The notes: generated from the letters alone by a model not told the origin. A stretch of 64,000 bases of DNA from Patescibacteria group bacterium (GCA_041662625.1 JBAZSB010000001.1:310467-374466); one strand, 5' to 3'; numbered from the stretch's first letter, positions 30,797-47,132 are shown. Translations and numbers: made by a program.

Positions 30797-32208
30797 AACT
30801 GAAAAACAATTGTTTTAAATTGATCGCCTCGATCAAACTCATTAATGAATAGGTTAAAAGATGCGGAGGCGGGTGAAAGTAAAATTGTATCCCCGCTTTT
30901 CCCAAAACTTTGAGCCAGACTCACGGCCTCAGTCATCTTGTTTAATTCGGCAATAAATGGCCGGAATTTCAACGACTTAAATTGTTTTTTTAACTGCTCG
31001 CTGCCCGGACCGGAAAACAAAATTACCGCTTTGCATTTTTGTTTGATAATTTTGGCTAATTCTTGATATTTGGCATCAGGAATATTTTTGGTGTCGCCGC
31101 CTGCCAACAAAATTACATTTCTTTTTTTGGCCAGTCTCAGAGCGGCAATTGTCGCGTCCGGTGTCGTTGCTGTTGTATCATTGATATATTTAATGCCTTT
31201 TTTTTCTTTAATTAATTCTAACCGACCGGGCAAACCCTTAAATTGTTTCAAAGCTGATTTAATAGCCAAGGGCGAAATATTAAAAGAAGCGGTAGCGGCC
31301 AAAGCGGCTAAAACATTTTCTAAGTTATGCCAACCAAAAAGCTTAATATCACTTACCTTGGCTAATCTTTTTTCCCCGCCGTTCCGCCGTAAGAAAATTT
31401 GACCACTTCTGACAAAGCAACCATTCTCCTCAGTAAAATATTTTTTTGAAAACCAAAATCGTTGTGAAACTACTACCTGACCCAATTTCTTGGTTTGGGG
31501 ATTATCTAAATTTAAAATGACAAAATCATTTTGATTTTGCCAGGTGAAAATATTTTTTTTGGCGGAAATATAAGAGGCCATCCCAAAGTAACGATTGAGG
31601 TGATCCGGATAAATATTAGTGAAAACAGCAATATGCGGGCTTAAGTTCTGCTCCCCTAAAATTTCTAATTGCCAGGAAGATAATTCCAAAACCACCAGAT
31701 CATTTGGTTTAACTTGATCTAAAATTTCCAGCATCGGTTGCTGAGGAAGACCGGCCAGCCAAACTGTTCCGTGTTTCATGTTCCGTGTTCCATGCCTTAA
31801 TATTTCATAAACTAAACTAGCCGTCGTTGACTTTCCCCGCGTTCCGGTCACGCCAATGATTTGGGCCGGACAATTTTTAAAAAATAGACTGGCCTCATTT
31901 TCAATTGGAATACCGGCTTTTCTGGCAAGCTTTAAGTATTTTGATTCCCGCCTCACGCCCGGGTTTTGAATAATTAAATCTGCATTTTTGAAATCACCTG
32001 CCCGGTGCTGCCCAAGTATTAACTTGATTTTTTGATTTTTTGTTTTCTTGATTCTCTTTAAAGATACGCTTAGCTCTTTGGCTGTCTTCAAATCCGTCAC
32101 CGTAACGCTGGCCCCATGCTTTGTTAGCCATTTAACACAAGCGACTCCACCGCCGTGGAGCCCTAGTCCCATTACTGTGACTTTTTTACCACTAAATAAA
32201 TTTCTCAT
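30793..32208 (-). CDS. murD: UDP-N-acetylmuramoylalanine--D-glutamate ligase MurD
   Basis: N-terminal GLGLHGGGVA Rossmann motif and GTRGKSTT P-loop. Confidence 0.8.
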   Translation of the reverse strand: MRNLFSGKKVTVMGLGLHGGGVACVKWLTKHGASVTVTDLKTAKELSVSLKRIKKTKNQKIKLILGQHRAGDFKNADLIIQNPGVRRESKYLKLARKAGIPIENEASLFFKNCPAQIIGVTGTRGKSTTASLVYEILRHGTRNMKHGTVWLAGLPQQPMLEILDQVKPNDLVVLELSSWQLEILGEQNLSPHIAVFTNIYPDHLNRYFGMASYISAKKNIFTWQNQNDFVILNLDNPQTKKLGQVVVSQRFWFSKKYFTEENGCFVRSGQIFLRRNGGEKRLAKVSDIKLFGWHNLENVLAALAATASFNISPLAIKSALKQFKGLPGRLELIKEKKGIKYINDTTATTPDATIAALRLAKKRNVILLAGGDTKNIPDAKYQELAKIIKQKCKAVILFSGPGSEQLKKQFKSLKFRPFIAELNKMTEAVSLAQSFGKSGDTILLSPASASFNLFINEFDRGDQFKTIVFQL

Positions 32209-32215
32209 TTTTGCT

Positions 32216-33256
32216 TTAAGTTTTATCCACTAAAAATAGAATTAAGCCAACTACCGCAGAAATTCCCGAAATTACCCAAAAACGCATGACGATTTTTGGC
32301 TCAGGCCAACCTTTGGCTTCAAGGTGATGATGCAGCGGCGAAGAAATAAAAAATTTATGGCCAAAAAACTTTTTAGAAATCATCTGGATAATAACGGAGA
32401 TAGTCTCAATGACAAAAATAAAACCGATAATTGGCAAAAGCAAAGCGGCATTAGTCAGCATCGCAATAATTCCTAAAGTGACTCCCAAAGACATTGAGCC
32501 GGTATCACCCATAAAAAACCTGGCCGGATTAATATTAAACCAGAGGAAAGCTGAAAGCGCGCCAATGATGACACCGCAAAAAGTGGCCAGATCATAACGG
32601 CCTTGGGCAAAAGAAATTGCCCCATAAGCGCCAAAGGCAATCAGTAAAGTTCCACCGGCCAAACCATCGAGGCCATCAGTCAAATTGACGGCATGAGCCG
32701 TAGCAATAATTACAAGAATAAAAAATGGAATATACCATAAGCCAATATCCAAGTAGCCAAAAAAAGGAACATAAAGAGTGGTCCATTCCAATTTAAAATA
32801 AAACCACCAGGCGCCAACAATAGCAATTAAACCATATATCAGGAAGCGGTGGCGCATCCGCAACCCGCCGCCGCCTTTGCCCATTCGCCAAACATCAAAC
32901 AAATCATCAATCAAACCAACGGCAGCTGAAGCAAGTAAAGCGCCAAGAGGCAGCAATGTTTCTTTACGTGATAAAAAATCTAATTTTGAAAACCACCCAT
33001 CAAAAAATTTACTTAAATAAAAAAATAAAAGGATTAGAAATAAAGTGGTGCCCCAAATCAAAATCCCACCCATTGTCGGCGTTCCGGCTTTCTTTTTATG
33101 CATGGCCGCAAAAACCGGGGCAGCTTGGGCATCACGAATTCCCTTGCCTAAACGATACTTATACAAAAAATGGGTTAAAAACGGCGTCCAAAGCAAAGTT
33201 AAAACAAAAGAAACCGTTGTTAAAAAGAAAATTTTGGTAATAAAAAAATTAGTCAT
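32216..33256 (-). CDS. mraY: phospho-N-acetylmuramoyl-pentapeptide transferase MraY
   Basis: NLTDGLDGLAGG and DTGS motifs; polytopic membrane protein. Confidence 0.85.
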   Translation of the reverse strand: MTNFFITKIFFLTTVSFVLTLLWTPFLTHFLYKYRLGKGIRDAQAAPVFAAMHKKKAGTPTMGGILIWGTTLFLILLFFYLSKFFDGWFSKLDFLSRKETLLPLGALLASAAVGLIDDLFDVWRMGKGGGGLRMRHRFLIYGLIAIVGAWWFYFKLEWTTLYVPFFGYLDIGLWYIPFFILVIIATAHAVNLTDGLDGLAGGTLLIAFGAYGAISFAQGRYDLATFCGVIIGALSAFLWFNINPARFFMGDTGSMSLGVTLGIIAMLTNAALLLPIIGFIFVIETISVIIQMISKKFFGHKFFISSPLHHHLEAKGWPEPKIVMRFWVISGISAVVGLILFLVDKT

Positions 33257-33262
33257 CTCAAT

Positions 33263-33688
33263 TTAATTAACTAAAGTTATGAAAACCCCGGCTAAAATAA
33301 AAATAAACTGGAGCAGACTAGCGGTACCAACCAAAAAATAACTGAGGATTCTTTCTCTTTGATAAAATATCAAACTGATTAGAAGATTAATTACGAGAAA
33401 TCCCAATCCAAACAGTGGCAGAAAAAATATCTGGTGCCAAGGGCCAAGCAGATCAATACCAAAATAAATATTATAATGAAGAAATATTAAATCAGAAAAA
33501 TTTCTGGCTTGCCAGACCAAAAAAAGCCATAAAATAATATTGGCAATCAAACTAAAAACCAGATTAATTTTAATAAACCGGTTACGGTAGTAAGAACCCA
33601 AAAAAGTTTGTTGGAAAGGTTGAGCGGCCATAAAAAATGATAAGATAAGGCTATTTCTATAATAATGATTATTTACGATTTTGTCCAC
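33263..33688 (-). CDS. hypothetical polytopic membrane protein
   Basis: 141 aa; four hydrophobic helices. Confidence 0.35.
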   Translation of the reverse strand: MDKIVNNHYYRNSLILSFFMAAQPFQQTFLGSYYRNRFIKINLVFSLIANIILWLFLVWQARNFSDLIFLHYNIYFGIDLLGPWHQIFFLPLFGLGFLVINLLISLIFYQRERILSYFLVGTASLLQFIFILAGVFITLVN

Positions 33689-33699: not shown

Positions 33700-33725
33700 T
33701 AAAATTTCGATTTTATGGTATAATA
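33700..33725 (+). promoter_or_regulatory. extended -10 promoter (TGgTATAAT) for the type IV pilus operon
   Basis: atggTATAAT at 33715-33723, about 40 nt upstream of the pilB ATG. Confidence 0.4.
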
Positions 33726-33761
33726 AAACTAACTAAATCGCTAAGATAAAAACAAATTTTT

Positions 33762-35489
33762 ATGTTTACTGAGCAAGAAATTGAAAAAATTATTCTGGAA
33801 ACCAAAATTTTAGGCCAAAAAGAACTAAATTTATACCTTGAGGAGTCAAAAAAAAGGAACCAAAAGCTGGAAGAATACCTTATCAGCCAGAAAATTATCA
33901 ACGAGGAACAACTCTACCAGACTGCCGCCCAATATTTTAATCTCCCCTTTATTAACCTCAAAAACGAAACTATCCGCAAGGATATTCTTTTTTTAATCCC
34001 CGAACCAATAGCGACCACTCATCGGATTCTCGCTTTCGACAAAACCGATACGGAATTAAAACTTGCCGCCCTGAATCCAGCCGATTTACAAATCTTTGAA
34101 TTTTTAGGTAAAAAAACCGGCCTCGAAGTAAAAATCTATCTAACCACACCGGAAGGCATTAATGAGGGAATAAAAAATTATCACAAAGGATTAAAAGCAG
34201 AATTTCAAGAACTTACCAATGGCAAGGAAAATATTGAAATTTCCGGCGATACTAAATTAAAAGAATTAGCCCATGATTTGCCGGTAATCAGAATAGTCGA
34301 TACTTTACTGGAATATGCAATCTTTGAAAGTGCGTCGGATATTCATATTGAACCAACGGAGAAAGAGGTGGTTGTTCGCTACCGAATTGATGGGATCTTA
34401 CGGAATGTCATGACTCTGCCTAAATCGATTCATGCCGGTATTATTGCCCGAATCAAAATTTTGGCAAATTTAAAATTAGATGAACATCGCTTACCCCAGG
34501 ATGGCCGTTTCAAAATTGTCACCAATGAATATAAAGTATCATTTCGTGTTTCCATTATTCCGGCCTATGACGGAGAAAAAATAGTCTTGCGGGCTTTAAA
34601 TGAACAAACCAGTGTAATCACTCTGGAGCAGCTCGGCTTTCAGAAAAAATCATTGGATAGAATTAAAAGAAATATCGCTAAACCCCACGGCCTAATTCTG
34701 GTAACCGGACCGACTGGTTCGGGAAAAACCACAACTCTTTATGCCGTCTTAAACATCCTAAACCGACCGGAAGTGAATATTACCACCATTGAGGACCCAA
34801 TTGAATATCGAATGCCCGGCATCAATCAAACTCAGGTTAACCCAAAAATCGGTTATACTTTTGCCGGCGGCTTACGGGCATTTCTAAGGCAAGATCCTAA
34901 TATTATTATGGTCGGCGAAATCCGGGATCAGGAAACTGCGGAAATCGCCATTCATGCGGCTTTAACCGGCCATCTAGTACTTTCCACTCTTCATACTAAT
35001 GACGCCCCAACAACCTTGCCTCGCTTAAGCGAAATGGGAGTACCGGCCTTTTTGGTTGCCTCCACCTGTAATGTCATTATTGCCCAAAGGCTGGTAAGAA
35101 AAATCTGCCAAGACTGCATTGAAAGCTACAATTTAACTAAAGAAGAAATCGCAAAATTAGAAAAGCAAATTAATCTAGAATCAATTCTCAGCACCTTGGA
35201 AAAAGAAAATCTAATAACCAAAAAACAAAGTAAGGAATCTCTGCTTTTCTACCGCGGCAAAGGCTGCAAGAAATGCAATAAAACCGGCTATAAAGGCCGA
35301 ATTGGCCTTTATGAAGTGTTGGAAATCACCCCAGAGATTAATGAATTGATTCTTAAGGGCTCACCGGCCAAAGAAATTCTGGAAACTGCCAAAAAACAAG
35401 AAATGCTAACCATTCTGGAAGATGGCTTCATTAAAGCTAAAACCGGAATTACTACGATTGAAGAAGTGCTCAGGGTAACAAAAGATTAA
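33762..35489 (+). CDS. pilB: type IV pilus assembly ATPase PilB (GspE family)
   Basis: GspE N-domain; Walker A GPTGSGKTTT; Asp box and His box; C-terminal tetra-Cys zinc motif CQDC...CKKC. Confidence 0.85.
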   Translation: MFTEQEIEKIILETKILGQKELNLYLEESKKRNQKLEEYLISQKIINEEQLYQTAAQYFNLPFINLKNETIRKDILFLIPEPIATTHRILAFDKTDTELKLAALNPADLQIFEFLGKKTGLEVKIYLTTPEGINEGIKNYHKGLKAEFQELTNGKENIEISGDTKLKELAHDLPVIRIVDTLLEYAIFESASDIHIEPTEKEVVVRYRIDGILRNVMTLPKSIHAGIIARIKILANLKLDEHRLPQDGRFKIVTNEYKVSFRVSIIPAYDGEKIVLRALNEQTSVITLEQLGFQKKSLDRIKRNIAKPHGLILVTGPTGSGKTTTLYAVLNILNRPEVNITTIEDPIEYRMPGINQTQVNPKIGYTFAGGLRAFLRQDPNIIMVGEIRDQETAEIAIHAALTGHLVLSTLHTNDAPTTLPRLSEMGVPAFLVASTCNVIIAQRLVRKICQDCIESYNLTKEEIAKLEKQINLESILSTLEKENLITKKQSKESLLFYRGKGCKKCNKTGYKGRIGLYEVLEITPEINELILKGSPAKEILETAKKQEMLTILEDGFIKAKTGITTIEEVLRVTKD

Positions 35490-35530
35490 CCGATAATTAG
35501 TTGATTTAAAAAATAAAAATATTAATCGCG

Positions 35531-36619
35531 ATGAACCTAAAAGAAAAATTGGCTCAAATAGTAGGCTGGCTGCGAAAGCCAAGAAAAGTTTCCCTTTCCC
35601 AAAAAATATTCTTTGTCCAACAGCTGGGGGTAATGCTTAAAGCCGGAATTTCTTTGTCGACTGCTTTAAAAACTCTGGCCCAGCAGACAACTTCCAAAAG
35701 TTTCAAAACAATTTTAGTTGACCTTCAACAAGACGTAGAAAAAGGCAATTTACTTTCTAAAGGTCTGGAGAGATACTCAAAAATATTTGGCGAATTATTC
35801 ATCAATATGATTAAAGCTGGTGAAGTTTCCGGCAAGCTCGAGGATGTTTTAAAACAACTTTTTGTCCAGCTGAAAAAGGATCACGACATCATCTCAAAGG
35901 TCAAGGGGGCGATGATTTATCCGATGATTGTGATTCTAATGATGATTGCTATTGGAATTTTGGTTCTAATCTATGTCATTCCAACTATGTCGGGCATCTT
36001 TACTGAAATGAATATTGAATTACCGCTAGCGACCAGAATCTTGATCTACTCTAGCCAATTCGCTCTGAACTACGGAATTTTTGTTTCAATCGGTTTAGCA
36101 ATTTTGGCAGTCATAATTGGCCGAGTAATTAGCCTGCCACAAGGAAAGAGACAATTCCACCAGCTGCTTTTAAAAACTCCGATTTTGGGCCGGATAATCA
36201 GAAAGATTAATTTGGCCCGTTTTTGTCGAGCTTTAAGCTCACTGCTTAAAACTGACATCCCAATCGTCCAATCATTTGAAATCACTGCCAAAATTCTCGG
36301 CAATGTCAAATATAAAGATGCGCTAACTGAAGCTAAAGAAAAAATTAAAAAAGGCGTCAGTATTGAAGAGTCATTAAGACCGCACATTAAACTATTTCCG
36401 CCAGTTGTCTTGCAGATGATTATGGTTGGTGAAGAAACCGGAGCCTTGGATAATATTTTGGAAGAATCAGCTGTTTTCTATGAAGAAGACGTTGCCCAAA
36501 CTATGGAAAATTTACCTTCAATTTTAGAACCAGTCTTAATGATTATCCTCGGCATTGCAGTGGCGGGAATGGCCGTCGCTGTTATTATGCCGATGTACTC
36601 TTTGAGCCAACAAATCTAA
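35531..36619 (+). CDS. pilC: type IV pilus platform protein PilC (GspF family)
   Basis: Two GspF repeats; three TM segments; 362 aa. Confidence 0.85.
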   Translation: MNLKEKLAQIVGWLRKPRKVSLSQKIFFVQQLGVMLKAGISLSTALKTLAQQTTSKSFKTILVDLQQDVEKGNLLSKGLERYSKIFGELFINMIKAGEVSGKLEDVLKQLFVQLKKDHDIISKVKGAMIYPMIVILMMIAIGILVLIYVIPTMSGIFTEMNIELPLATRILIYSSQFALNYGIFVSIGLAILAVIIGRVISLPQGKRQFHQLLLKTPILGRIIRKINLARFCRALSSLLKTDIPIVQSFEITAKILGNVKYKDALTEAKEKIKKGVSIEESLRPHIKLFPPVVLQMIMVGEETGALDNILEESAVFYEEDVAQTMENLPSILEPVLMIILGIAVAGMAVAVIMPMYSLSQQI

Positions 36620-36627
36620 CCAGAAAA

Positions 36628-39600
36628 ATGGCTAAAATTTTAAAAAATCCTAAAGGATTCTCACTAATTGAGGTTGTTTTTGCCACTCTAATTCTAGCCA
36701 CGGCCGGAGTGGGAGTTTTAAGTATGTTTGGATTTGGTCTGAAAGTAATCGCCGAGATCAAGTCTAAGACCGGAGCTATAACTGTTGCTAATGAAATTAT
36801 AGAAATGATCCATAATCTTCCTTACAATCAGGTCGGCACTGTCGGCGGCCTTATTTCCGGACCGGTACCACAAGAAGATACGATCAACTTAAACGGAGTT
36901 GAATATGCAGTCAGCACTAGCGTCGATTATATTGATGACCCTTTTGACGGCACGGTAGCATTAGGCACTGACGAATTAGGCAATGATTATAAAAAAATCC
37001 GAGTGGCCGTAGCCTGGACCAGCCATTTTGGTCAAAAAGAAATAGTTTCAGTCACAACGATTGCTCCCCAAGGAATAGAATCAAATGAAGGATCGGGTAT
37101 TTTGTGGATTAATGTCATTAATGCCAATGGCGACCCCGTGTCTGATGCCTCTATCCATATTGTCAATCACAGTACCAATCCAGAAATTGATGATTCTTCA
37201 CATAAAACTAATGATGAAGGCTACTATTATTCTAGTGCTCCATCAGCCAATAGCTCTTATCAGATTACCGTTACTAAAGACGGCTACAGCAGCGATTATA
37301 CGTGCGCCATTGATCCAATTGGTGCTGGCTGCAGTGCCGCCGAAGGTAATCCTAATCCAGTCAAACCGCATGCAACGGTAATTGAAGGTCGTCTGACTTC
37401 AATTACTTTTGCCATTGACCAAGTGGCAACTTTAAATATTCATACTATTTCTCAAACTATTCCTAATGAATGGCAGGTTAATACTGATTCCAGTTCTGAA
37501 GACCAGTTCTCCCCTGCTCTGGCTTTAGGAACAAATGGCAATTATTATTTCGTTTGGCAGGACTTTCGTAGTTACGCCGCAAGAATTTACAGTCAGAGTT
37601 ATGACCAACAAGTTAACCAATGGACTTCTGATTTACCAGTAACAACTTCTAATAATCAAGGCGCTCCTCAACTGGCTTTGGATGGTGACAATAATATTTA
37701 TTTCACCTGGCATGATGATAGAACCGGTAATCAAGATATTTACCTGGATAAATATGATTCTTTGGGTAATGACCTTTGGACTGGAGCCAAAAAAATTAAT
37801 ACCGATTCTGGTTCAGCCGACCAGCAATATCCAAAAATAATTTATAACGCCTCAAGCACTGCACCGGCTTTTTATATCGCCTGGAAAGACGAGCGGGCGG
37901 GTGGAGGAAAATCAGATATTTATTTACAGAAATTTGACACTAGTGGTAATGCCTTATGGTCGGCGGAATTGAAAGTCAATTTAAACTCATCTTCAGCTTA
38001 CCAAGCTAGTGATTCTGCCAGCTGGACTTTTGATAATTTGCTAGATTATGTCTGCAACAGCGGTAGCTGCGATGGCAGTAATGATATTGAAGTAAGCGGC
38101 GGCTTTTCCCAGCTAGTCCCCTTAAAAACCTGCCAAGGAACTCCCGATAACTGCGATACTCTTTTAACTGAAGCCAGTTGTGGCAACCAAAGCGGCTGCA
38201 GTTGGGACCAGGCCGGCCCCTGCAGTGGCCTAAGTTGCAGCTGTAATTTACTGACTGAAGAAGCTGATTGTGATTTGGCATCAAGCTGCTTGTGGCAGGC
38301 TGGCGCTGAAAGCTGCTCGGGTAGTTGCCACTGTTGGTCAATCGGTAATCGCGGTCGGTGTAATTCCGTACCTCAATGCAGCTGGTGGTTTTTCTTTTGC
38401 AACGGCGGCAGCAGTTGTAGCTGCCAGGATATTACTAATCAGACCACTTGTCTAGATGCCGACTGCTCATGGGGTTCTTCTGGCGGCAGTTGTTCTGGAA
38501 GCTGCAGCTGCTCAGATTTAACCACTGAATCAATTTGTACCCAATCAAGCTGTGATTGGGATCCGGCCGGACCCTGTTCAGGCACGGCTGTGGCTTGCGG
38601 CAGTTTTACTGATTTAGAAACTTGTCAGGATCAAACCGGCTGTTCTTGGGAAGACTCGGGATCTGGTTATCCTACTGATAAGCCGGATATTTATATTGCT
38701 GAATCGTTGTCTGTAGCCAATCTGACTGCCTGGGATTCTTTCACAGAAACGGCAGTAAAAAACGGCGGCGAGATCTATTACCAGCTTTCTGATAACAATG
38801 GCGGAAACTGGAAATATTTTGACGGCAGCGGCTGGTCAACAGCCGGAGCCTCTGATTATAATACCGCCGGAGAAATTAATGATCATATCGCTTTATTTCC
38901 TATTGCCAAAGGAAAAATAATGTTCAAAGCCTTTTTTGTCAGTAACGGGAGCCAGCAAATTCAATTAGACCAAATCGACATCGGTTATTCTTATACCACT
39001 GATGGCGGCGGCTACTCTCAATCGGTTGATTTAGCAATGGATCAAGATGAAAACGTTTATGTTGCCTGGGAAGACTACCAGATTGATAATTATGATATTT
39101 TCATCCAAAAAGTTGATTACCTTGGTAGTGTTGTCTGGACTAATGATATTAGGGCAAATACTGCCGGCAGTGGTAATCAAACCAATCCCAATCTCAACGT
39201 TGACAGCAATAATGATGTTTATATTGTCTGGCAGGATGATCGCAACGGCAACAACGACATCTACGGCCAAAAATACGATTCGGCGGGTAATAATCTATGG
39301 CCAACTGGCGATTTGGTAATGAGCGTGGTGACAACCAGCAATCAAGAAAATCCTAAGGCAGTTATTGATGCGAGTAATAATCTTTATATTGTGTGGCAAG
39401 ACTATCGTAACGGCAATAATGATATTTATAGTCAAAAGATTGACTCAATGGGTAATATCATCTGGCCCAATGATGTTCGGATTAATTCTGACACCACTGG
39501 TGAACAAAAAAATCCTGATGTCATCATTAACCAATCAGGCAATCTGGTAATAACTTGGCAGGACAATAAAGATGGCAATTACGATATTATGGCGGCCGAA

Positions 39601-39882
39601 TACCCAAATGACCCCAGTGCTTACACTTCTACCCCTAACGTTCCCTTAATAATCGTGGGCAGTAAAAAAATAGGGACAAGTCCCGATCTCTATAAATATA
39701 ATGAAAATCACACTACGGATGCCTCAGGTCAGCTAATCCTAAATAATATTGAATGGGATACCGAGGGTTATAATATCAGCCTTCAGGCCGGGTCTGTTTA
39801 TACTATCATCAGTACGGAACCACCAATGCCGATTTCTGTTTCTCCAGGAGCTACTATCGATATTACTATAAATTTAGAATAA
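36628..39882 (+). CDS. giant type IV pilin-like protein (1084 aa): prepilin N-terminus, Ig/prealbumin-like domain, W-D-R repeat (propeller-like) blocks and a Cys-rich repeat module; candidate pilus adhesin
   Basis: N-terminus MAKILKNPKG^FSLIEVVFATLILATAGVGV has the class III signal (Gly-1, Phe+1, Glu+5). About 7 repeats of the form Y(F/I)(V/A)WQDxRxGNxDIYxQK(Y/I)DSxGNxLW. The 210-aa middle region carries more than 40 Cys in CSW / CSGSCSC repeats. Confidence 0.7.
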   Translation: MAKILKNPKGFSLIEVVFATLILATAGVGVLSMFGFGLKVIAEIKSKTGAITVANEIIEMIHNLPYNQVGTVGGLISGPVPQEDTINLNGVEYAVSTSVDYIDDPFDGTVALGTDELGNDYKKIRVAVAWTSHFGQKEIVSVTTIAPQGIESNEGSGILWINVINANGDPVSDASIHIVNHSTNPEIDDSSHKTNDEGYYYSSAPSANSSYQITVTKDGYSSDYTCAIDPIGAGCSAAEGNPNPVKPHATVIEGRLTSITFAIDQVATLNIHTISQTIPNEWQVNTDSSSEDQFSPALALGTNGNYYFVWQDFRSYAARIYSQSYDQQVNQWTSDLPVTTSNNQGAPQLALDGDNNIYFTWHDDRTGNQDIYLDKYDSLGNDLWTGAKKINTDSGSADQQYPKIIYNASSTAPAFYIAWKDERAGGGKSDIYLQKFDTSGNALWSAELKVNLNSSSAYQASDSASWTFDNLLDYVCNSGSCDGSNDIEVSGGFSQLVPLKTCQGTPDNCDTLLTEASCGNQSGCSWDQAGPCSGLSCSCNLLTEEADCDLASSCLWQAGAESCSGSCHCWSIGNRGRCNSVPQCSWWFFFCNGGSSCSCQDITNQTTCLDADCSWGSSGGSCSGSCSCSDLTTESICTQSSCDWDPAGPCSGTAVACGSFTDLETCQDQTGCSWEDSGSGYPTDKPDIYIAESLSVANLTAWDSFTETAVKNGGEIYYQLSDNNGGNWKYFDGSGWSTAGASDYNTAGEINDHIALFPIAKGKIMFKAFFVSNGSQQIQLDQIDIGYSYTTDGGGYSQSVDLAMDQDENVYVAWEDYQIDNYDIFIQKVDYLGSVVWTNDIRANTAGSGNQTNPNLNVDSNNDVYIVWQDDRNGNNDIYGQKYDSAGNNLWPTGDLVMSVVTTSNQENPKAVIDASNNLYIVWQDYRNGNNDIYSQKIDSMGNIIWPNDVRINSDTTGEQKNPDVIINQSGNLVITWQDNKDGNYDIMAAEYPNDPSAYTSTPNVPLIIVGSKKIGTSPDLYKYNENHTTDASGQLILNNIEWDTEGYNISLQAGSVYTIISTEPPMPISVSPGATIDITINLE

Positions 39883-39897
39883 GGGCAGAATAAAAAA

Positions 39898-40521
39898 ATG
39901 TTTCGAGCCAAAGAAAAAAACCAAAGCCACGGCTTCACTTTAATAGAAGCGATGGTAACAATCGGAATATTTCTAGTCAGCTTAAGCGCTGTAACCCTTT
40001 TTGTCACCCAGGGTTTCAAAGTTAACCGGTTTGCGATTCAACAGAGTGACGCCATTAACTATGCTCGTAAAGGAATTGACATTATGATCAAAGAAATTAG
40101 AGAAGCCTCACCCGCAGAAAATGGCAGCTATCCGATTGTTACCGCCCAAAATCAGACCCTTACTTTTTATAGCGATATTGACCAAGACGAATTAGTAGAA
40201 AGAGTAAGATATTTCTTGGACGGGGTTAATTTAAAAAAAGCCGTTTCAAAACCTAGTGGGTTTCCTCCGGTCTATTCCATTGAAGAACAGATAAGCACTC
40301 TATCGGAATACGTCCGAAACGATACTGACCCAATTTTTTATTATTATAATAAGGATTTTCCAACTGACACTGAAAATAATCCGTTGCCTCAGCCCATAGC
40401 GATAAACGAGGTAAGATTGATCAGAATTTTTTTAAAAATAAATGTTGACCCTGCCTATGCCCCGGCCGATTTTGTTTTAATTTCCAACAGCCAGCTAAGA
40501 AATCTTAAAGATAATCTATAG
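39898..40521 (+). CDS. minor pilin / pseudopilin (prepilin-type N-terminus)
   Basis: MFRAKEKNQSHG^FTLIEAMVTIGIFLVSLSAV; Glu at +5. Confidence 0.65.
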   Translation: MFRAKEKNQSHGFTLIEAMVTIGIFLVSLSAVTLFVTQGFKVNRFAIQQSDAINYARKGIDIMIKEIREASPAENGSYPIVTAQNQTLTFYSDIDQDELVERVRYFLDGVNLKKAVSKPSGFPPVYSIEEQISTLSEYVRNDTDPIFYYYNKDFPTDTENNPLPQPIAINEVRLIRIFLKINVDPAYAPADFVLISNSQLRNLKDNL

Positions 40522-41946
40522 ATGAAAAATTCTAAACAAACGCCAAAAATTAATTTGGTTAGTAAGGAAAGAGGTGGTATACTAATAATGACGTTAGTTT
40601 TTGTAACTGTTTTTTTAATTATTGCAATTGGTCTTCTGAGTTTGATTAATCAGCAGACAAAATTAGGCGAGCAACGCCAAGCCTTATCGGAGGCCATCCA
40701 GATTGCTGAAGCCGGCGTAAATTATTACCGTTGGCACCTAGCGCATGATTTAGAGGATTATGCTGATGATACCGGCCAAACCGGCTGCTACCCCTGCGGA
40801 CCTTATACTCATGAGTACTACGACCCCTCTAGCGGCTTAGTTGGTTATTTTAGTTTAACTATCACCCCACCTGCCCCCACTTACCCTGGCTCAACAATCG
40901 TCAAAATCAAATCAGTTGGCTGGACCACAAAATATCCCAATTCAAAAAGAGAAGTGGCAGTAAGGCTGGGCTTACCGTCGCTAGCCAGATTTACCACTGT
41001 TGTCCATAACAATCTAAATTACGGCGTCGGTTCGGAAACCTTCGGCCCGGTTCATTCCAATGGCGGCATTAGATTTGATGGCATTGCCCATAATATTGTC
41101 AGTAGTGCCTTGGAAGAATATTGGTATGGCGGCAGCTATGGCTGGCGCGATGGAGTTTGGACATCACTAGCCAATGAAGATGAGGTATTTTTAGCCGGCA
41201 AAGAATTCCCGGCGCCAACGGTTGACTTCGGCAGTTTCACCCAAAGTTTAAATACGATGGAAACTTATGCCACTTCAGATGGTGTATTATTAGAACCATC
41301 CGGATATCAAGGGTATCATATTCAATTTTTGGGTGATGGTAATTTCCAGTACCGAATAGTTGAAAGCAAAACTTCGACTTGCAATGATGAAGACACCGGG
41401 GGCATTGCCACCTATTACGGTGATTGGCAAACCGTTGCTATACCGGACAATGGCTTAATCTTTGCTAAAGATAATTTATGGGTTGACGGCACGGTTAATG
41501 GCAGTCGGGTAACTTTAGTAGCCGCCGAAGATCCCCTAGATACCGGCGAAGCAGATATTTTTCTGAATAACGATCTATTATATACTGATAAAAATGGTTT
41601 GGATGTTATCGGTTTAATTGCCCAAAGGAATGTAGTTATTGGCTTGTATAGCGAAGATGATTTAGAAATTGACGCCGTTTGTATCGCTAAAAATGGCAAG
41701 CGCTTTAGGCCTGATTACGGTTCCACTATGCAATGCGGGTCAAGTGTCTTAAGAGATGAATTCCTTTTGTACGGATCAACAATTAGCTATTTAACTCCCT
41801 ACATGAACAGCGGCTCAAGCGGGTATGAAAATCGCAGTTATATCTATGACCCTAATACGCTTTATGCTCCCCCGCCCTTTTTCCCAACCAGCGGTGAATA
41901 CGAATTTATCCTCTGGGAAGAAGTTTTAGAAGGAGAAACATACTAA
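40522..41946 (+). CDS. PilX-N-like pilus-associated protein (large, uncleaved hydrophobic N-terminus)
   Basis: KERGGILIMTLVFVTVFLIIAIGLLSL resembles the PilX_N domain; 474 aa; no G/FxxxE cleavage motif. Confidence 0.45.
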   Translation: MKNSKQTPKINLVSKERGGILIMTLVFVTVFLIIAIGLLSLINQQTKLGEQRQALSEAIQIAEAGVNYYRWHLAHDLEDYADDTGQTGCYPCGPYTHEYYDPSSGLVGYFSLTITPPAPTYPGSTIVKIKSVGWTTKYPNSKREVAVRLGLPSLARFTTVVHNNLNYGVGSETFGPVHSNGGIRFDGIAHNIVSSALEEYWYGGSYGWRDGVWTSLANEDEVFLAGKEFPAPTVDFGSFTQSLNTMETYATSDGVLLEPSGYQGYHIQFLGDGNFQYRIVESKTSTCNDEDTGGIATYYGDWQTVAIPDNGLIFAKDNLWVDGTVNGSRVTLVAAEDPLDTGEADIFLNNDLLYTDKNGLDVIGLIAQRNVVIGLYSEDDLEIDAVCIAKNGKRFRPDYGSTMQCGSSVLRDEFLLYGSTISYLTPYMNSGSSGYENRSYIYDPNTLYAPPPFFPTSGEYEFILWEEVLEGETY

Positions 41947-41957
41947 AAAATATTTTT

Positions 41958-43013
41958 ATGGAAATTGAGTCATCAAAAAATATCTTCGGCCTAGATATCA
42001 GCCAAAATTGTGTGCGCCTGATCCAGTTAAAAAGGAAAAATAAAGATTTTTCCATTAAATCTTTTAATGAGGTAAGGCTGGCTGATGGAACCATTGTTAA
42101 TGGCGAAATAAAAAATCAGGATAAAATGACAGAGGCCGTTAAAAAATTGGTTAAAACTGTCCAAGGAGACAAGATAAAAACTAAAAATCTTGTCGCCGTT
42201 TTACCTGAACCAAAAACTTTCATTAAAGTAATAGAAATAGTAATTAAAAATGAAAAAGATAACATAACGAAGTTGGTTCAGGAAGAAATAAAAAATCATA
42301 TTCCTTTAGAGGCTGAGGATATCTACTTCGATTGGCAGATTTTAAGCCAAAATAACAATCAGACAAAAATTATAGTGGCGGCAATCCCAAAAGTAATATC
42401 AGACTCTTACTTTGATACTTTAACCAAGGCCGGTTTTATTCCAATCGCTTTAGAAGTTGAAGCCATCGCCATTGCCCGAGCTTTGATCAAAGAAAAAGAA
42501 GAGGACCCCAAAAAAGCTAAAATTATCATTGATTTTGGGGCAACGAGAACCAGCTTAATTATCTACGACCACAAAGCAGTTCAATTCACTGTCAGTTTAC
42601 CAATTTCCGGTGATAAAATTACCGAAACAATTTCTAACACTCTTAGCCTTGATGCCCAAAAGGCGGAAGAAGCAAAAATTGTCTGCGGTTTAGACCAAAA
42701 AAAATGTGAAGGGGCAATATTCAAAATACTTGTAGCCTCAATTAATAATCTGGCTGACCAAATTAAAAAATCAATTATTTTTTACAAAACAAACTTTGTC
42801 GATAGCAATGACATAGCTGGAATTATAATTTGCGGCGGCGGGGCAAACTTGTCCCAAATTGATAAAATATTAACGGAGGCACTTCAAATCCCAACCGCAA
42901 TTGCTAATCCCTTAATCAACCTCGGTAAACAAAAAGGATTAAATATGCCAGCTGACAAATTGCTGTCTTATGCGACGGCTATTGGTCTAGCTTTAAGAAA
43001 TTGGCAAAAATAG
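41958..43013 (+). CDS. pilM: type IV pilus assembly protein PilM (actin-like ATPase fold)
   Basis: 351 aa; FtsA/PilM-like pattern; position upstream of pilN/pilO. Confidence 0.7.
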   Translation: MEIESSKNIFGLDISQNCVRLIQLKRKNKDFSIKSFNEVRLADGTIVNGEIKNQDKMTEAVKKLVKTVQGDKIKTKNLVAVLPEPKTFIKVIEIVIKNEKDNITKLVQEEIKNHIPLEAEDIYFDWQILSQNNNQTKIIVAAIPKVISDSYFDTLTKAGFIPIALEVEAIAIARALIKEKEEDPKKAKIIIDFGATRTSLIIYDHKAVQFTVSLPISGDKITETISNTLSLDAQKAEEAKIVCGLDQKKCEGAIFKILVASINNLADQIKKSIIFYKTNFVDSNDIAGIIICGGGANLSQIDKILTEALQIPTAIANPLINLGKQKGLNMPADKLLSYATAIGLALRNWQK

Positions 43014-43558
43014 AAATGATTACTTTGAATTTAATTTCACCTGAACAAAAAAAAGAACTCGGACTACGCCGGTTTTATATTTTGATCAAAAACTTAACTA
43101 TTATTTTCTTACTTTTTACTACCATTTTAGCAATTATCATGTTAATTGCTAAAATGATTATCCAGAATAATTTCAATAAAGTTGTTAATGATTATTCTTT
43201 GACTACAAGATACAGTCGAATTGTTAATTATGAAATGGAAAATTTTGATAAGCAACTGAACTTTATAGTAAATGTTCAAAATGACTACATCCCCTGGACT
43301 AATTTTATTGCCAGTTTTATCAATTCTGTCCCACCAGAAATTAATCTCTATAGTGTTGATTTGGGAAAGACAGATAGCCAAATGAAAATTAATGGCTTTG
43401 CCCAAAATCGGGATGACCTCTTAAAATTCAAAGGTAATCTAGAAAACCTGCCACTTCTATCGGAAATAAATGTACCAATGGGAAACCTCCTAAAAAAAGA
43501 AAGTATTGAATTCGAAATTGAAGCAAAAATCAACTTAGAAGAATTGAAAAAACTATGA
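43001..43558 (+). CDS. pilN: PilN-like bitopic membrane protein
   Basis: Short cytoplasmic N-terminus, one TM (IIFLLFTTILAIIMLIA), periplasmic coiled-coil domain; overlaps the pilM stop. Confidence 0.55.
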   Translation: MAKIEMITLNLISPEQKKELGLRRFYILIKNLTIIFLLFTTILAIIMLIAKMIIQNNFNKVVNDYSLTTRYSRIVNYEMENFDKQLNFIVNVQNDYIPWTNFIASFINSVPPEINLYSVDLGKTDSQMKINGFAQNRDDLLKFKGNLENLPLLSEINVPMGNLLKKESIEFEIEAKINLEELKKL

Positions 43559-44091
43559 GCCTAAAACTGAAAACTGCTATTATTGTATCACTAAATATCC
43601 TACTTATTATAGTAATTTCTTTGGTTATTATTTTACCAATCACTCGAGATATTAAAAAAATTGGTGATGCAATCTACAAAGAAAGAGTTGATTTGGAAAA
43701 AAAATATTTAAGAGGCCAATTATTGAAAAAAACAGTCAGCGATTTTGAAAAAATAAAACCTCAAAAAGACAGATTGAATGCTATTTTTATTATTGAAGGT
43801 GAGGAACTAAAATTTGTTTCTAGGCTGGAAGAAATTGCCAGTTTAAATAATGTCCGCCAAACTATTGAGCTAGATACAAAAAATTCTGAGATTCAGGAAG
43901 GAATAAAGATATTACCTTTAAAAATAACAACCCAGGGTAATTTTGTATCAATAATGAAATACCTAACTGATTTGGAACAACTCAATTATTATTTTAATAT
44001 TTATTCAGTCAGAATAGGAACGGAAAAAGATTTAATTATTGCTACTTTAGATGGTAAAATTTTCAGCCAGGGTAAAGAGGAAATAAAATAA
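43555..44091 (+). CDS. pilO: PilO-like bitopic membrane protein
   Basis: One TM then coiled-coil/ferredoxin-like C-domain; overlaps the pilN stop. Confidence 0.5.
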   Translation: MSLKLKTAIIVSLNILLIIVISLVIILPITRDIKKIGDAIYKERVDLEKKYLRGQLLKKTVSDFEKIKPQKDRLNAIFIIEGEELKFVSRLEEIASLNNVRQTIELDTKNSEIQEGIKILPLKITTQGNFVSIMKYLTDLEQLNYYFNIYSVRIGTEKDLIIATLDGKIFSQGKEEIK

Positions 44092-44096
44092 ACAAC

Positions 44097-44414
44097 ATGA
44101 AATTAAAACTTGCAAAAATAGCCACCTCTTCAAAAACTATCACCCTGATAGTAACCTTGATTTTTATTATTATTTTAGGGTATTTCGGCGGATTTTTATA
44201 TAAAAATATTTATCAAACCATTACTCAATCCCAGGAAATTATCGTTATGAGGGCAGAAGTTTCCCCCTATGCAATTAACATCGAAAAATTTAATGATATC
44301 TTAACAGCAATTGACAAAAAAAGTACCGCTACAAATACTCCCGCTTGGCAAGAGATGAGGAACCCTTTTGGTTTTACTTCAATTAATCGGCCAACGACCG
44401 GCGGAATAGATTAA
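44097..44414 (+). CDS. small single-TM protein, last gene of the pilus operon (PilP-like?)
   Basis: 105 aa, one TM segment. Confidence 0.3.
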   Translation: MKLKLAKIATSSKTITLIVTLIFIIILGYFGGFLYKNIYQTITQSQEIIVMRAEVSPYAINIEKFNDILTAIDKKSTATNTPAWQEMRNPFGFTSINRPTTGGID

Positions 44415-44449
44415 AAAAAGTCTATAAAGCTCTTCTAGCTTACTTACTT

Positions 44450-44476
44450 AAAACCGAGGTCTATACCTCGGTTTTA
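44450..44476. terminator. bidirectional intrinsic terminator between the pilus operon and iscS
   Basis: AAAACCGAGGT-ctata-CCTCGGTTTT. Confidence 0.7.
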
Positions 44477-44497
44477 AGTACGAATTTTTATCACTAA

Positions 44498-45667
44498 TTA
44501 TTTTATTGGCGATATCATCCTTAATTTAGCCACAATCCTCGGTAAAACCTCCAATAAATAATCAACATCTTTTTCTGTATTGAATTTACCCAAAGTTATC
44601 CTTAAACTGCCATGAGCCAACAGCGGATCCATGCCTAGACTCATAAGGACATGAGATGGCTCCAATGAGCCAGAAGAGCAGGCCGAACCGGTAGAAACGG
44701 CAATCCCTTCTTGGTCTAAAAGTAAAAGCATACTTTCACCTTCTACCCCCTTAAAACTAAAGTGGGCATTGCTTGGGACTCGTTTTTCTAAATCACCATT
44801 AACTTGGGTATTAGGAATATTTTTCAAAACGCCAGCAATTAATTTATCACTTAATTTTTTTATTTTCTTATTACTTTCTTGATCTTGAGTGATAAGTTCG
44901 ACTGCCTTCCCTAGGCCAATGATACCGGGCACATTTAAAGTGCCAGGGCGCAAACCTTTTTCCTGATGGCCGCCAAATTGAATTGGGCTAAGTGGCGTAC
45001 CAGCCCTTTTATACAAAACCCCGATACCTTTTGGTCCATAAATTTTATGACCGGACAAAGATAATAAATCAACCCCCAATTTGTCAACATTCATCTCACA
45101 ATAATTAGCAGCTTGGACCGCGTCAGTATGAAAATAAATTCTGTTTTCTGATTTCCGTTTTCTGTTTTCTTCCTTTACCAATTCTCCAATTTCAACAATT
45201 GACTGAATAGTTCCGATCTCATTATTAACATACATAACTGAAATCAAACGGGTATTCTCTTTAATCGCCTGTTTGATATCATCAACGGAAACTAAACCTT
45301 TATTGCTCACGCCAATATAAGTAACTTCCACGCCTCTTTTTTCCATCTCCCGGCAGGGCTCCAAAATGGCCGGATGTTCAATTCTAGTAGTAATAATATG
45401 TTCGCCTGGCTTGGCTAAACCCAAAATCACAAGATTATCACTTTCAGTCGCTCCAGAAGTGAAAAAGACTTCACTAGTCTTACTCCCTAAAAAATCAGCA
45501 ACGATTTCTCTGGCTTCATCCACTTTTGCCATAGCTGTTTGGCCGTGAATATGAATTGACGAAGCATTACCAAAAGTTTCAGAAAAATAAGGCAACATTT
45601 CTTTAAGAACCTGGGGGGCCACCGGAGTAGTGGCTGAATGGTCAAAGTAGATTTTTTGGTTAGACAT
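44498..45667 (-). CDS. iscS: cysteine desulfurase IscS/NifS
   Basis: PLP-lysine motif SGHKIYGPKGIGVLY; active Cys near the C-terminus (GSACSSGS). Confidence 0.85.
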   Translation of the reverse strand: MSNQKIYFDHSATTPVAPQVLKEMLPYFSETFGNASSIHIHGQTAMAKVDEAREIVADFLGSKTSEVFFTSGATESDNLVILGLAKPGEHIITTRIEHPAILEPCREMEKRGVEVTYIGVSNKGLVSVDDIKQAIKENTRLISVMYVNNEIGTIQSIVEIGELVKEENRKRKSENRIYFHTDAVQAANYCEMNVDKLGVDLLSLSGHKIYGPKGIGVLYKRAGTPLSPIQFGGHQEKGLRPGTLNVPGIIGLGKAVELITQDQESNKKIKKLSDKLIAGVLKNIPNTQVNGDLEKRVPSNAHFSFKGVEGESMLLLLDQEGIAVSTGSACSSGSLEPSHVLMSLGMDPLLAHGSLRITLGKFNTEKDVDYLLEVLPRIVAKLRMISPIK

Positions 45668-45760
45668 AACAATTTAAGTTAATAAAGTTAATAGAGCAAT
45701 AAAGCGATAAGGTGCCGAAAACTTCATTACTTTATTAACTTTATCGCTTTATCTCTTAAT

Positions 45761-45985
45761 TTAAACGGCCTCAATATCTTTAACACCCTTAACCTTACTC
45801 TTTAAAACCCGGCCAATACCATCTTGCAAAGTCATCTGTGACATTGGACAACCAGCGCAAGCCCCTTGGAGTTTAAGCTTGACTATACCTTTCTTTTCAT
45901 CAACATCAATTAGTTCTACATCGCCGCCATCGGCTTGAAGGGTAGGCCTTATTTCATCTAGAATTTTTTTTACTTCGTCTTTCAT
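45761..45985 (-). CDS. NifU-like (Nfu C-terminal-type) Fe-S assembly protein
   Basis: CAGCPMS CxxC motif; 74 aa. Confidence 0.65.
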
Positions 45986-45996
45986 AGTTAGTTATA

Positions 45997-46072
45997 GAAT
46001 TAAGAATCATGAATCAAGAATTAAGGTTGCTTGGTAGTACTTCCTTGATTCTTGATTCTTACTTCTTGATTC
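45997..46072. repeat. intergenic palindromic tandem-repeat hairpin, GAATCAAG type, loop core TTAAGGTTGCTTGG
   Basis: gaattaagaatcatgaatcaagaattaaggttgcttggtagtacttccttgattcttgattcttacttcttgattc between the iscU stop and the nfu start. Confidence 0.7.
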
Positions 46073-46517
46073 AATCTTCGGTAATCTTATAATCCTTAAT
46101 TTCCGGATATTGATCCAGCACCCTCTCTTTTTCTAGATAATTCCTGATTGCCACTTTCAAAGCATCGGAAGCTAAAACTGAACAATGTAGTTTAACTGGC
46201 GGCAATTCACCAAGGCCTTTGACAATATCTTTTTTTTCCAAAATCCAAGCTTCTTTTAAAGTTTTACCTTTGACCATATCGGTTGAAATTGAAGAACAGG
46301 CAATCGCTGCGGCACAACCTAAGGTTTCAAACTTAACGTCTGAAATCACGTCTTCCAATCGGTTGACAGTTGACGACGGGTGATCAACCTTTAAATAAAT
46401 TTTCATCATATCCCCGCATAAAGGGTTACCGACTTCACCAATCGCGTCAGCGTCAGCAATTTGACCCTGGTTATGGGGATTTTGGAAATGATCCATTACT
46501 TTTTTAGAATATGGCAT
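46071..46517 (-). CDS. iscU: Fe-S cluster scaffold IscU/NifU N-terminal-type
   Basis: NPLCGD, ...GCAAAIACSS conserved Cys ligands. Confidence 0.8.
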   Translation of the reverse strand: MPYSKKVMDHFQNPHNQGQIADADAIGEVGNPLCGDMMKIYLKVDHPSSTVNRLEDVISDVKFETLGCAAAIACSSISTDMVKGKTLKEAWILEKKDIVKGLGELPPVKLHCSVLASDALKVAIRNYLEKERVLDQYPEIKDYKITED

Positions 46518-46547
46518 AAGCTTAAATTAGAAATTCATAATTAAAAA

Positions 46548-46946
46548 TTAAATCAAATCTTTCAAAGTCATTGATTTTAAACTGTCAGTAATCGCTTTTT
46601 GGACTTTTTGATAGACTTTAGCTGACGGACAAGCCTTAACCCCGCAAAAAACCCGACCATTCACGCCCAGACAATGAAAGACCGAGATTTGTCCTTCTAA
46701 AGCCTCTATAACGCTAAAAACGCTGATTTTTGAAGGGTTTCTGGCCAATTGATAGCCACCAGCCATTCCTTTCGAGCTAAGCACTAAATCGGCCTTTTTT
46801 AAACGAGAAAAAAGTCGTTCCAAATAGGCCTGGGAGATCTTTTCGGCTTTAGCCATTTTAGCTAAAGAATAAGGTCCCTGGGCGTAATTTTTAGCTAAAT
46901 GGATTATTGCCCTTAAGCCATAAGATGATCTGGTGGAAAATTTCAT
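46548..46946 (-). CDS. iscR: Rrf2-family transcriptional regulator (IscR-like)
   Basis: MKFSTRSSYGLRAIIHLA Rrf2 HTH; three Cys (CLGVNGRVFCGVKAC) consistent with a cluster-binding IscR. Confidence 0.7.
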   Translation of the reverse strand: MKFSTRSSYGLRAIIHLAKNYAQGPYSLAKMAKAEKISQAYLERLFSRLKKADLVLSSKGMAGGYQLARNPSKISVFSVIEALEGQISVFHCLGVNGRVFCGVKACPSAKVYQKVQKAITDSLKSMTLKDLI

Positions 46947-47031
46947 ATATTAAATTGGCTAAAATCGGGCAAGACCAGAGGGTGGACTGAATTAACTAGA
47001 TTAGATTCCCACCCTCCTCTCGCCACACTTA

Positions 47032-47082
47032 TTAGCAACCGCAGCCGGGGCCGCAGTTACTACAGCACGAACAATTGTCCAT
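47032..47082 (-). CDS. 16-codon Cys-rich leader ORF MDNCSCCSNCGPGCGC (7 Cys) upstream of iscR
   Basis: ATG at 47082-47080, double stop TAATAA at 47034-47029; preceded by promoter TTGACA(47160-47155)-16nt-TAAAAT(47138-47133); followed by an 8-bp-stem hairpin GAGGGTGG...CCACCCTC (46977-47017) before the iscR start at 46946. Confidence 0.3.
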   Translation of the reverse strand: MDNCSCCSNCGPGCGC

Positions 47083-47132
47083 ATATTGAGCGCTTAATTA
47101 TTAATACCAACCATTTTAGTCGGTATTTATTA

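Follow-up and report, generated by a model that had tools for sequence, protein, structure and literature searches.

The pilus operon of a Patescibacteria group bacterium (GCA_041662625.1, JBAZSB010000001.1:310467-374466; the whole 64,000-nucleotide (nt) stretch analysed is called the window) raises the question of whether it builds a pilus of its own around a giant pilin or supplies only part of a larger system. Open reading frame (ORF) calling on the window places nine tightly packed genes at positions 33762-44414, all on the plus strand. The initial annotation of this DNA listed a promoter, the nine genes, and a terminator, all of which were recovered in place, and took them for a complete type IV pilus operon, possibly specialised around the giant pilin for adhesion or DNA uptake rather than twitching motility. 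Judged by its machinery genes, the locus belongs among the type IV pilus systems. We propose, with a probability of roughly two in three, that three consecutive pilin-like proteins encoded in its middle, of 1084, 207, and 474 amino acids (aa), form the tip (priming) complex of a pilus on a core operon, that the major pilin and the prepilin peptidase PilD are encoded elsewhere, and that the locus is not a self-sufficient system.

The last of the three, the 474-aa protein, belongs to a family in which G18 is conserved and no glutamate stands at position +5 (Glu5). The initial annotation called it PilX-N-like, and a weak N-terminal match to PilX_N is present beside weak matches to GspK and ComGG; the PilX_N match is sub-threshold, however (E 2e-4, 21.6 versus 25.5 bits), and the predicted fold matches ComZ. 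The AlphaFold2 (AF2) model, built from an alignment of 68 sequences with a mean predicted local distance difference test (pLDDT) score of 91.9, runs from a helix (residues 17-75) through a four-stranded sheet (92-150) and a run of short parallel strands to a last strand (461-468), that is, a predicted pilin helix and sheet with a large beta-solenoid before the last strand. In a Foldseek search of the PDB, this model retrieved three chains of Thermus thermophilus ComZ (6qvi) with E-values of 2e-11 to 2e-10 and a probability of 1.0, the match spanning both the pilin-like and the solenoid domain of ComZ, and the next matches were solenoids of ice-binding proteins at E-values of at least 0.02. ComZ consists of a GspK-like pilin domain with a beta-solenoid inserted before its last strand; the solenoid resembles the ice-binding protein FfIBP, and ComZ binds the neighbouring GspI-like pilin PilA2 as well as DNA and is sterically restricted to the pilus tip (PMC6561018). 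Lacking Glu5 and carrying a bulky inserted domain, the 474-aa protein has the hallmarks of a K-type minor pilin, and on the strength of the model it is ComZ-like in fold, not a proven homologue, the likeness being structural only. Its homologues form at least 2390 clusters at E ≤1e-10, nearly all named 'hypothetical', and according to a genome scan at least 569 species-level genomes contain a relative.

The first of the three, the giant pilin, begins with a class III signal of the form G/F-x-x-x-E (K-G/FSLIE), as does the 207-aa pilin (H-G/FTLIE); these two proteins are the signal-bearing substrates of the locus, and the signal residues of each are at least 90% conserved in its homologues. The giant pilin is identical to an NCBI entry, 'MAG: hypothetical protein WC675_01700 [Patescibacteria group bacterium]', and, since three independent assemblies carry the same protein, it is not an assembly artefact. 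It comprises a pilin domain (residues ~1-150), an immunoglobulin (Ig)-like CarboxypepD_reg domain (~150-277), a beta-propeller in two parts (283-456 and 793-1000), and a C-terminal Ig-like domain (1003-1084), the two parts of the propeller being separated by a Cys-rich repeat region (476-672, 30 Cys) and a beta-sandwich (~690-792). The AF2 model has a mean pLDDT of 77, above 85 outside residues 469-690, and predicts a pilin head made of a helix (13-62) and four strands. The propeller blades carry the motif W-x-D-x-R-x-G-N-x-D-I-Y, and Foldseek matched the propeller to those of sialidases, GH43 enzymes, and lectins at E ~1e-6. A role as a sialidase or GH43 enzyme was considered and not adopted, the propeller likeness being generic at 7-16% identity and the repeat motif not being an Asp-box.

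In Buchananbacteria, Falkowbacteria, Doudnabacteria, Magasanikbacteria, and further Patescibacteria, the giant pilin has homologues of three size classes, ~600, ~745, and ~1080-1150 aa. Pairwise comparison of the 1084-aa protein with a 745-aa and a 599-aa homologue revealed that the 599-aa form contains only the pilin, an Ig-like domain, and the C-terminal domain, that the 745-aa form adds the propeller to this plan, and that the 1084-aa form adds residues 457-792, including the 30-Cys repeat, inside the propeller. By these comparisons, the cargo of the large pilin varies through nested domain insertion on a constant pilin-plus-Ig stalk, as would be expected of a tip adhesin. If any part of the protein binds the host or another surface, it is most likely this cargo of propeller and Cys-rich insert. 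The Cys-rich insert itself (window ~38053-38643) packs its cysteines into ~200 aa of ~30-aa repeats (C..LT.E..C.....C.W....G.C.G.C.C), a density of potential disulfide or metal-binding residues that is unusual for a surface protein; its AF2 confidence is below 50, and it is confined to the pilin versions of 1081-1151 aa (3 of 73 homologues in genome loci).

Between these two lies the 207-aa pilin, whose gene always stands between those of the large pilin and the 474-aa protein in related loci. Pfam N_methyl is recognised in 41 of its 46 orthologues, and NCBIfam gave only weak N-terminal matches, to ComGF, PilV, GspH, and GspJ. No match was found for its head, as the family profile retrieved only pilin N-terminal helices from the PDB. 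It is probably a minor pilin at the GspJ/ComGF position, the J-like assignment being positional only.

The arrangement of the three pilins was compared across the 80 best species-level genome loci of relatives of the 474-aa protein. In this comparison of gene order with Candidate Phyla Radiation (CPR) loci, which the initial annotation had suggested, 12 of the 80 have exactly the nine-gene order, while the five-gene core of pilB, pilC, large pilin, ~205-aa pilin, and ~475-aa protein is present in 62, of which 50 have the core only. In 45 of these 50, more than 3 kb of downstream DNA is present and pilMNO are truly elsewhere. The remaining loci are mostly truncated by contig ends or rearranged as intact blocks; in about a third of them (L024, L025, L029, L049, L070, L084), pilB and pilC are not linked although 9-10 kb of upstream DNA is available, and in L038 the order is pilB-pilC-pilM-pilN-pilO-105 followed by the pilin trio, so that the pilMNO-105 block and the trio have changed places, each of them intact. 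Wherever the contig permits, the three pilins are contiguous and in constant order. Apart from the two closest loci, the counterparts of the 474-aa protein in the 80 loci are 38-48% identical to it. In five loci (L021, L024, L025, L029, L051), the module is adjoined by short pilins (150-250 aa) with the GFTLIE signal, which suggests that the system normally uses a conventional major pilin. The locus is thus a standard core pilus operon of Patescibacteria, widely conserved there, and the closest named relatives of the source lineage are Buchananbacteria and Falkowbacteria. Some operon contigs lie in metagenome-assembled genomes (MAGs) labelled Gammaproteobacteria, Flavobacteriaceae, or Thiotrichaceae (L012, L019, L022, L046), and many others are labelled 'uncultured Candidatus Saccharibacteria'. 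The first three labels, taken at face value, would mean spread outside Patescibacteria; they were set aside as probable mis-binning, the odd labels being probably binning or labelling errors and not horizontal transfer.

The machinery genes around the trio (Table 1) are those of a type IV pilus. PilB belongs to the PilB/GspE family of hexameric extension ATPases, matching the NCBIfam models PilB TIGR02538 (E 9e-178) and GspE (E 1e-165), both under their equivalog cut-offs. PilC is a PilC/GspF platform protein with two T2SSF domains and matches the NCBIfam GspF/PilC models at E 1e-90 to 1e-75, and PilM matches TIGR01175 (E 4e-51) over its cut-off. For PilN and PilO, the identification comes from orthologues and family profiles. 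The PilN of the window falls just below the threshold of Pfam PilN (E 1e-4), 18 of 20 orthologues from related loci match this family, and the family profile finds Thermus PilN (4bhq, E 0.012) and Myxococcus PilN as its top matches in the PDB. PilO is weak in Pfam PilO (E 0.013), which 9 of 18 orthologues match, with a T2SSM_b match in one, and its family profile aligns with Myxococcus PilO (3jc8) at E 2e-6 over residues 12-172, nearly its full length. A PilM-PilN-PilO alignment subcomplex is therefore encoded, and the initial annotation is upheld in reading the locus as a type IV pilus operon from an organism of monoderm type that has no secretin, none being found in the window.

Table 1. Features of the pilus operon, with positions counted from the first nucleotide of the window.
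Feature	Position	Strand	Basis or remark
Extended -10 promoter element (putative), TGGTATAAT	33716-33724	+	Read from the sequence; pilB ATG 38 nt downstream
pilB, extension ATPase, 575 aa, N-terminal MshEN domain	33762-35489	+	Pfam T2SSE E 1e-132, MshEN E 4e-10
pilC, platform protein, 362 aa	35531-36619	+	Two Pfam T2SSF stretches, E 8e-56
Giant modular pilin, 1084 aa	36628-39882	+	Class III signal peptide G10/FSLIE
207-aa pilin (G12/FTLIE), GspJ/ComGF position	39898-40521	+	Pfam N_methyl E 1e-6
474-aa putative ComZ-like capping pilin; N-terminal hydrophobic helix, pilin-like sheet, large beta-solenoid	40522-41946	+	AF2 model
pilM, actin-like cytoplasmic alignment protein, 351 aa	41958-43013	+	Pfam PilM_2 E 1e-44
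pilN, 180 aa from ATG 43016 (TTG at 43001 would give 185 aa)	43016-43558	+	Start as in gene calls on the identical contig
pilO, 178 aa	43555-44091	+	Family profile and Pfam matches of orthologues
105-aa single-pass membrane protein, conserved C-terminal NPF motif	44097-44414	+	Position 3' of pilO
Bidirectional intrinsic-terminator-like hairpin, 16-bp stem	44445-44480	both	Shared with convergent iscS

The 105-aa protein at the end of the operon gave no family match in Pfam, in NCBIfam, or with its family profile against PDB sequences. Its orthologues share a conserved Y-x-T-I-T / E-I segment besides the NPF motif, and its gene directly follows pilO in all 19 of the loci that contain pilO, the rearranged L038 included. 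From this conserved position, it reads as a lineage-specific fourth partner of PilM-N-O, and it could be a CPR-specific substitute for PilP. The constant linkage in related loci also upholds the assignment of both the 474-aa and the 105-aa products to the pilus, which the initial annotation had named as a point on which its reading could fail.

The genes abut or overlap as had been described, at spacings of 41, 8, 15, 0, 11, 2 (or a 13-base overlap), a 4-nt overlap (pilN/pilO), and 5 nt in order. Of 63 related loci, 46 have a promoter element of the TGnTAnAAT type 5' of pilB, where chance alone would give ~0.05. The hairpin at the 3' end has the core CCGAGGT-CTAT-ACCTCGG with AAAA and TTTT on either side and, because its GC core is flanked in this way, can terminate in both directions and serve both convergent units, in agreement with the bidirectional terminator first annotated. 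On either side, the operon is flanked by the divergent mraY/murD/ftsW/murG genes and the convergent iscS/nifU/Rrf2 genes. Separately, the N-terminus of PilB (33762-34180) has a sub-threshold match to the MshE-type cyclic di-GMP (c-di-GMP)-binding motif NF053729 (E 2.5e-5, 24 bits versus a cut-off of 38 bits), and the MshEN domain together with this match hints that, even in a reduced genome, c-di-GMP may regulate the extension of the pilus.

The initial annotation also stated that the window contains no PilT/PilU-like retraction ATPase, short major pilin, or prepilin peptidase, and three kinds of search agree. Among essentially all ORFs of at least 90 aa in the window, Pfam detected neither a second T2SSE domain nor a Peptidase_A24 or secretin domain; when the six-frame translation of the window was searched with PilB by phmmer, PilB alone and no paralogue was retrieved; and a six-frame regular-expression search of the whole window found no prepilin-type signal beyond those of the two pilins and no short pilin. 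In the ~2 kb past each window end that overlapping contigs of other assemblies cover, only ftsL/ftsI appear on one side and a further PEP-utilizers gene on the other. PilT defines the twitching-type type IVa pilus (T4aP), not type IV pili (T4P) in general. The absences of PilT, PilD, and a major pilin are statements about the 64-kb window, and they say little, because these genes are unlinked in the 80 related loci too, where no PilT-sized paralogue and no PilD motif was found within ±10 kb and a short pilin adjoins the module in only five. The description of the operon as complete does not stand, since the peptidase on which its two prepilins depend and a fibre-forming short pilin are both missing from it, so that essential parts must lie elsewhere. 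That they do so is supported by the two PilD-dependent proteins, the short pilins in five loci, the precedent of Nanosynbacter lyticus TM7x, whose major pilin comes from a separate locus (PMC11623550), and the reported wide occurrence of PilT and PilD in CPR (PMC6744442; PMC11623550). The absence of PilQ, the secretin, has already been described for CPR (PMC6744442).

The operon encodes the extension motor PilB, the platform PilC, and, in PilM/N/O with the 105-aa partner, the alignment complex of the cytoplasmic membrane. Its gene order of ATPase, platform, I-, J-, and K-position pilins, PilM/N (GspL-like), and then PilO (GspM-like) matches, according to established knowledge and NCBIfam matches, that of gsp and comG operons from which the major pilin has been left out, and in the proposed model the trio would occupy the I-, J-, and K-positions as a counterpart of GspI-J-K, ComGE-GF-GG, or Thermus PilA2/ComZ. 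Because it has no Glu5 and carries a bulky beta-solenoid, the 474-aa ComZ-like protein may cap the filament, beneath which the giant pilin, by its pilin domain, and the 207-aa pilin would dock; the conserved partnership with a GspK/ComZ-like capping pilin would place the giant pilin at the tip as well. Its Ig-like stalk would project the beta-propeller and the Cys-rich insert within it from the tip, where they would serve in binding. A short major pilin, with its gene at another site, would polymerise under the tip complex after cleavage by PilD, and a secretin would not be needed because there is no outer membrane. Through the propeller, the tip may bind glycans or proteins of the host-cell surface, and binding of extracellular DNA through the solenoid is possible by analogy with ComZ. 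Retraction would be driven by an unlinked PilT or be independent of a motor. The specialisation around the giant pilin that was first suggested survives in part in this model: adhesion or DNA uptake is probable, but the giant pilin is an unlikely fibre body and is partnered with a GspK/ComZ-like cap.

Several points weigh against the tip complex. No sequence similarity between the 474-aa family and ComZ was detected in profile searches of PDB sequences with 5 and 68 members, and the global TM-score between the 474-aa model and ComZ is low (~0.32), probably owing to differing domain orientation. The I- and J-like assignments of the giant pilin head and the 207-aa pilin come from weak N-terminal matches of E 1e-4 to 0.09 and from gene order. 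Assembly of the trio, its tip location, and its binding are predictions from sequence and models. Solenoid DNA binding is proposed by analogy with ComZ. The major pilin, PilD, and PilT of the source organism were sought within the 64-kb window alone, and none is there.

The alternative that survives best, although we consider it rather unlikely, is that the tip is purely adhesive, the ComZ-like solenoid being a host-binding or structural module that does not bind DNA, and that DNA uptake, if any, proceeds through other receptors. Beta-solenoids are common in adhesin and in ice- or carbohydrate-binding folds, ice-binding proteins are the next-best structural matches of the 474-aa model, and sequence similarity to ComZ is lacking; in addition, host binding has been demonstrated for a large minor pilin of TM7x (PMC11623550). 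The match, however, covers both ComZ domains at E 2e-11, against 0.02 or more for other solenoids, and the 474-aa protein is conserved to a much greater degree than a host-specific adhesin would be expected to be, in contrast to the variable cargo of the large pilin. Some 70% of CPR genomes are without ComEA, and a different means of binding DNA has been postulated (PMC6744442), which makes the conserved solenoid pilin an attractive candidate, by analogy, for a DNA receptor. A bolder version of the tip-complex model, also drawn by analogy and in our view unlikely, is that the trio is ancient and vertically conserved, with the ComZ-like pilin as the DNA receptor and the cargo pilin setting host or surface specificity, so that attachment and DNA scavenging would be coupled, possibly with no dedicated retraction motor.

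It is a good deal less probable that the locus builds a short Com- or type II secretion system (T2SS)-like pseudopilus, in which the trio, alone or with few copies of another pilin, would form a stubby membrane-anchored display of the propeller and solenoid, or a DNA-uptake piston, and no long fibre. The collinearity with comG and gsp operons, the lack of a major pilin in the operon, and the scores of PilB against GspE, nearly equal to those against PilB, all fit this idea, as does another Patescibacterium inferred to have a 'pseudopilus', with PilA missing from the gene neighbourhood (PMC11809585). However, the PilM/N/O set is of the T4aP type, and short pilins adjoin the module in five related loci. 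To our knowledge, ComG systems are without PilM/N/O, and T2SS has GspL/M, GspC, and a secretin. Cultivated Patescibacteria, moreover, bear visible pili whose major pilins are encoded away from the machinery (PMC11623550). Least credible of all, and very improbable, is a self-contained pilus without a retraction ATPase whose filament is mainly giant pilin and which serves adhesion or DNA uptake, not twitching: PilT, PilD, and a short pilin are indeed absent from the window and unlinked to the operon in most relatives, and pili reportedly can retract without a motor (10.1101/2021.03.09.434644), but the two prepilin signals require PilD and tie the locus to genes outside it, a 1084-aa subunit that bears a propeller and Ig domains cannot form the packed core of a helical fibre (the same steric argument was made for the far smaller ComZ; PMC6561018), PilT and PilD are reported as widespread in CPR as noted above, and ordinary short pilins adjoin the module in some relatives.

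The surroundings of the operon are conserved as well. The operon occupies the same chromosomal position in distant relatives from Buchananbacteria and Falkowbacteria (L003, L004, L007), with the murG-ftsW-murD-mraY block and a small conserved membrane ORF of 122-137 aa on one side (window 27972-33688) and iscS-nifU-Rrf2, or Peptidase_C39_2, L27, and CTP synthase genes, on the other (window 44498-50714). The mraZ-mraW-ftsL-ftsI portion of the dcw cluster lies ~27 kb off, at the start of the window. The upstream ORF of 122/141 aa (33263-33688, minus strand) was examined as a possible pilus component and rejected, being a polytopic membrane protein on the mraY side with no pilin signal. Farther downstream, at least five paralogous genes of 446-527 aa occupy 51637-63904 on the minus strand, in an array that runs past the window end (L009). 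Only a C-terminal PEP-utilizers 'swivel' domain is recognisable in them, with partial matches to PEP synthase, PigC, RedH, and Rph, and beside them lie a separate gene with a PPDK_N ATP-grasp domain (53140-54084), a pair of MtxX/Mmp4-like genes (55327-57001), one gene resembling SbnI/SerK (57011-57784), and, at 57787-59021, two ORFs without matches. From its domains, the array looks like a split and multiplied phosphotransfer system. Three further ORFs, 5655-7946 (plus strand, 763 aa), 17952-18815 (minus strand, 287 aa), and 4956-5573 (minus strand, 205 aa), have no or marginal Pfam matches, and the 763-aa and 287-aa ORFs have no NCBIfam match either.

Type IV pili are essential for the few Patescibacteria in culture to live as epibionts, and they are thought to supply DNA to bacteria unable to make nucleotides; tip proteins contacting the host or DNA are so far known only in Saccharibacteria. 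The tip-complex model would turn three hypothetical proteins, conserved in hundreds of CPR species, into a testable proposal with a candidate ComZ-like DNA receptor and a variable-cargo adhesin; if its bolder version is true, the ComZ-like pilin would be the long-sought extracellular DNA receptor of nucleotide-auxotrophic Patescibacteria, most of which are without ComEA. The secretin-less organisation with dispersed pilT, pilD, and pilA is already known for CPR, and the pilus operon itself is ordinary there. A Patescibacteria-wide trio with a ComZ-like pilin and a giant pilin with nested insertions was, as a combination, not found described in a limited literature search with ComZ and Patescibacteria terms.

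Compared with known systems, the locus differs from the ComG competence pseudopilus of Firmicutes, which has an ATPase, a platform, and five pilins including ComGC, in that PilM/N/O are present and no ComGC-like pilin is found in the window, and from T2SS in that GspD secretin, GspC, and GspG were not found in the window. It resembles GspI-J-K, the T4aP core minor pilins with PilY1, and ComGE-GF-GG in its contiguous block of pilin-like proteins, the last of which has no Glu5 and a bulky insert, placed between the ATPase and platform genes and the GspL/M-like (PilM/N/O) genes, and the propeller-bearing adhesin proposed here for the tip recalls PilY1. Unlike those sets, the operon contains neither a GspH/FimU-like fourth member nor a major (pseudo)pilin, the propeller is part of a pilin where PilY1 is a separate protein, and the I- and J-like folds of the giant pilin head and the 207-aa pilin are putative, proposed from position. 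Streptococcus sanguinis PilB, which carries a vWA module (10.1101/2021.01.27.428410), is likewise a pilin with grafted functional domains from a monoderm-type T4P, but the giant pilin greatly exceeds it in size, having five or more modules as well as nested insertions, and differs in its grafted domains, which are an Ig-like domain, a propeller, and a Cys-rich repeat.

Closest in predicted fold is Thermus thermophilus ComZ with PilA2 (6qvi; PMC6561018), with which the 474-aa model shares a hydrophobic helix, a GspK-like sheet, and a large inserted beta-solenoid; neither protein has a canonical PilD site or Glu5, and both are encoded beside smaller pilins in a minor-pilin block. The organism here, however, has no outer membrane or secretin, sequence similarity is undetectable, DNA binding by the 474-aa protein is only putative, and the neighbours are a giant propeller pilin and one 207-aa pilin in place of PilA1-3. 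The T4P-2 system of TM7x (PMC11623550; PMC12206443) belongs to the same superphylum, and its machinery locus contains PilB, PilC, and PilM-N-O and no PilT; the PilX2 of TM7x is a large minor pilin with a C-terminal beta-propeller and is needed for host binding (PMC11623550). In contrast to TM7x, a single operon here unites the motor and the alignment complex with the three-pilin module, the propeller pilin has a canonical prepilin signal, which PilX2 reportedly does not have, and a predicted ComZ-like solenoid pilin is present, in a lineage nearer to Buchananbacteria and Falkowbacteria.

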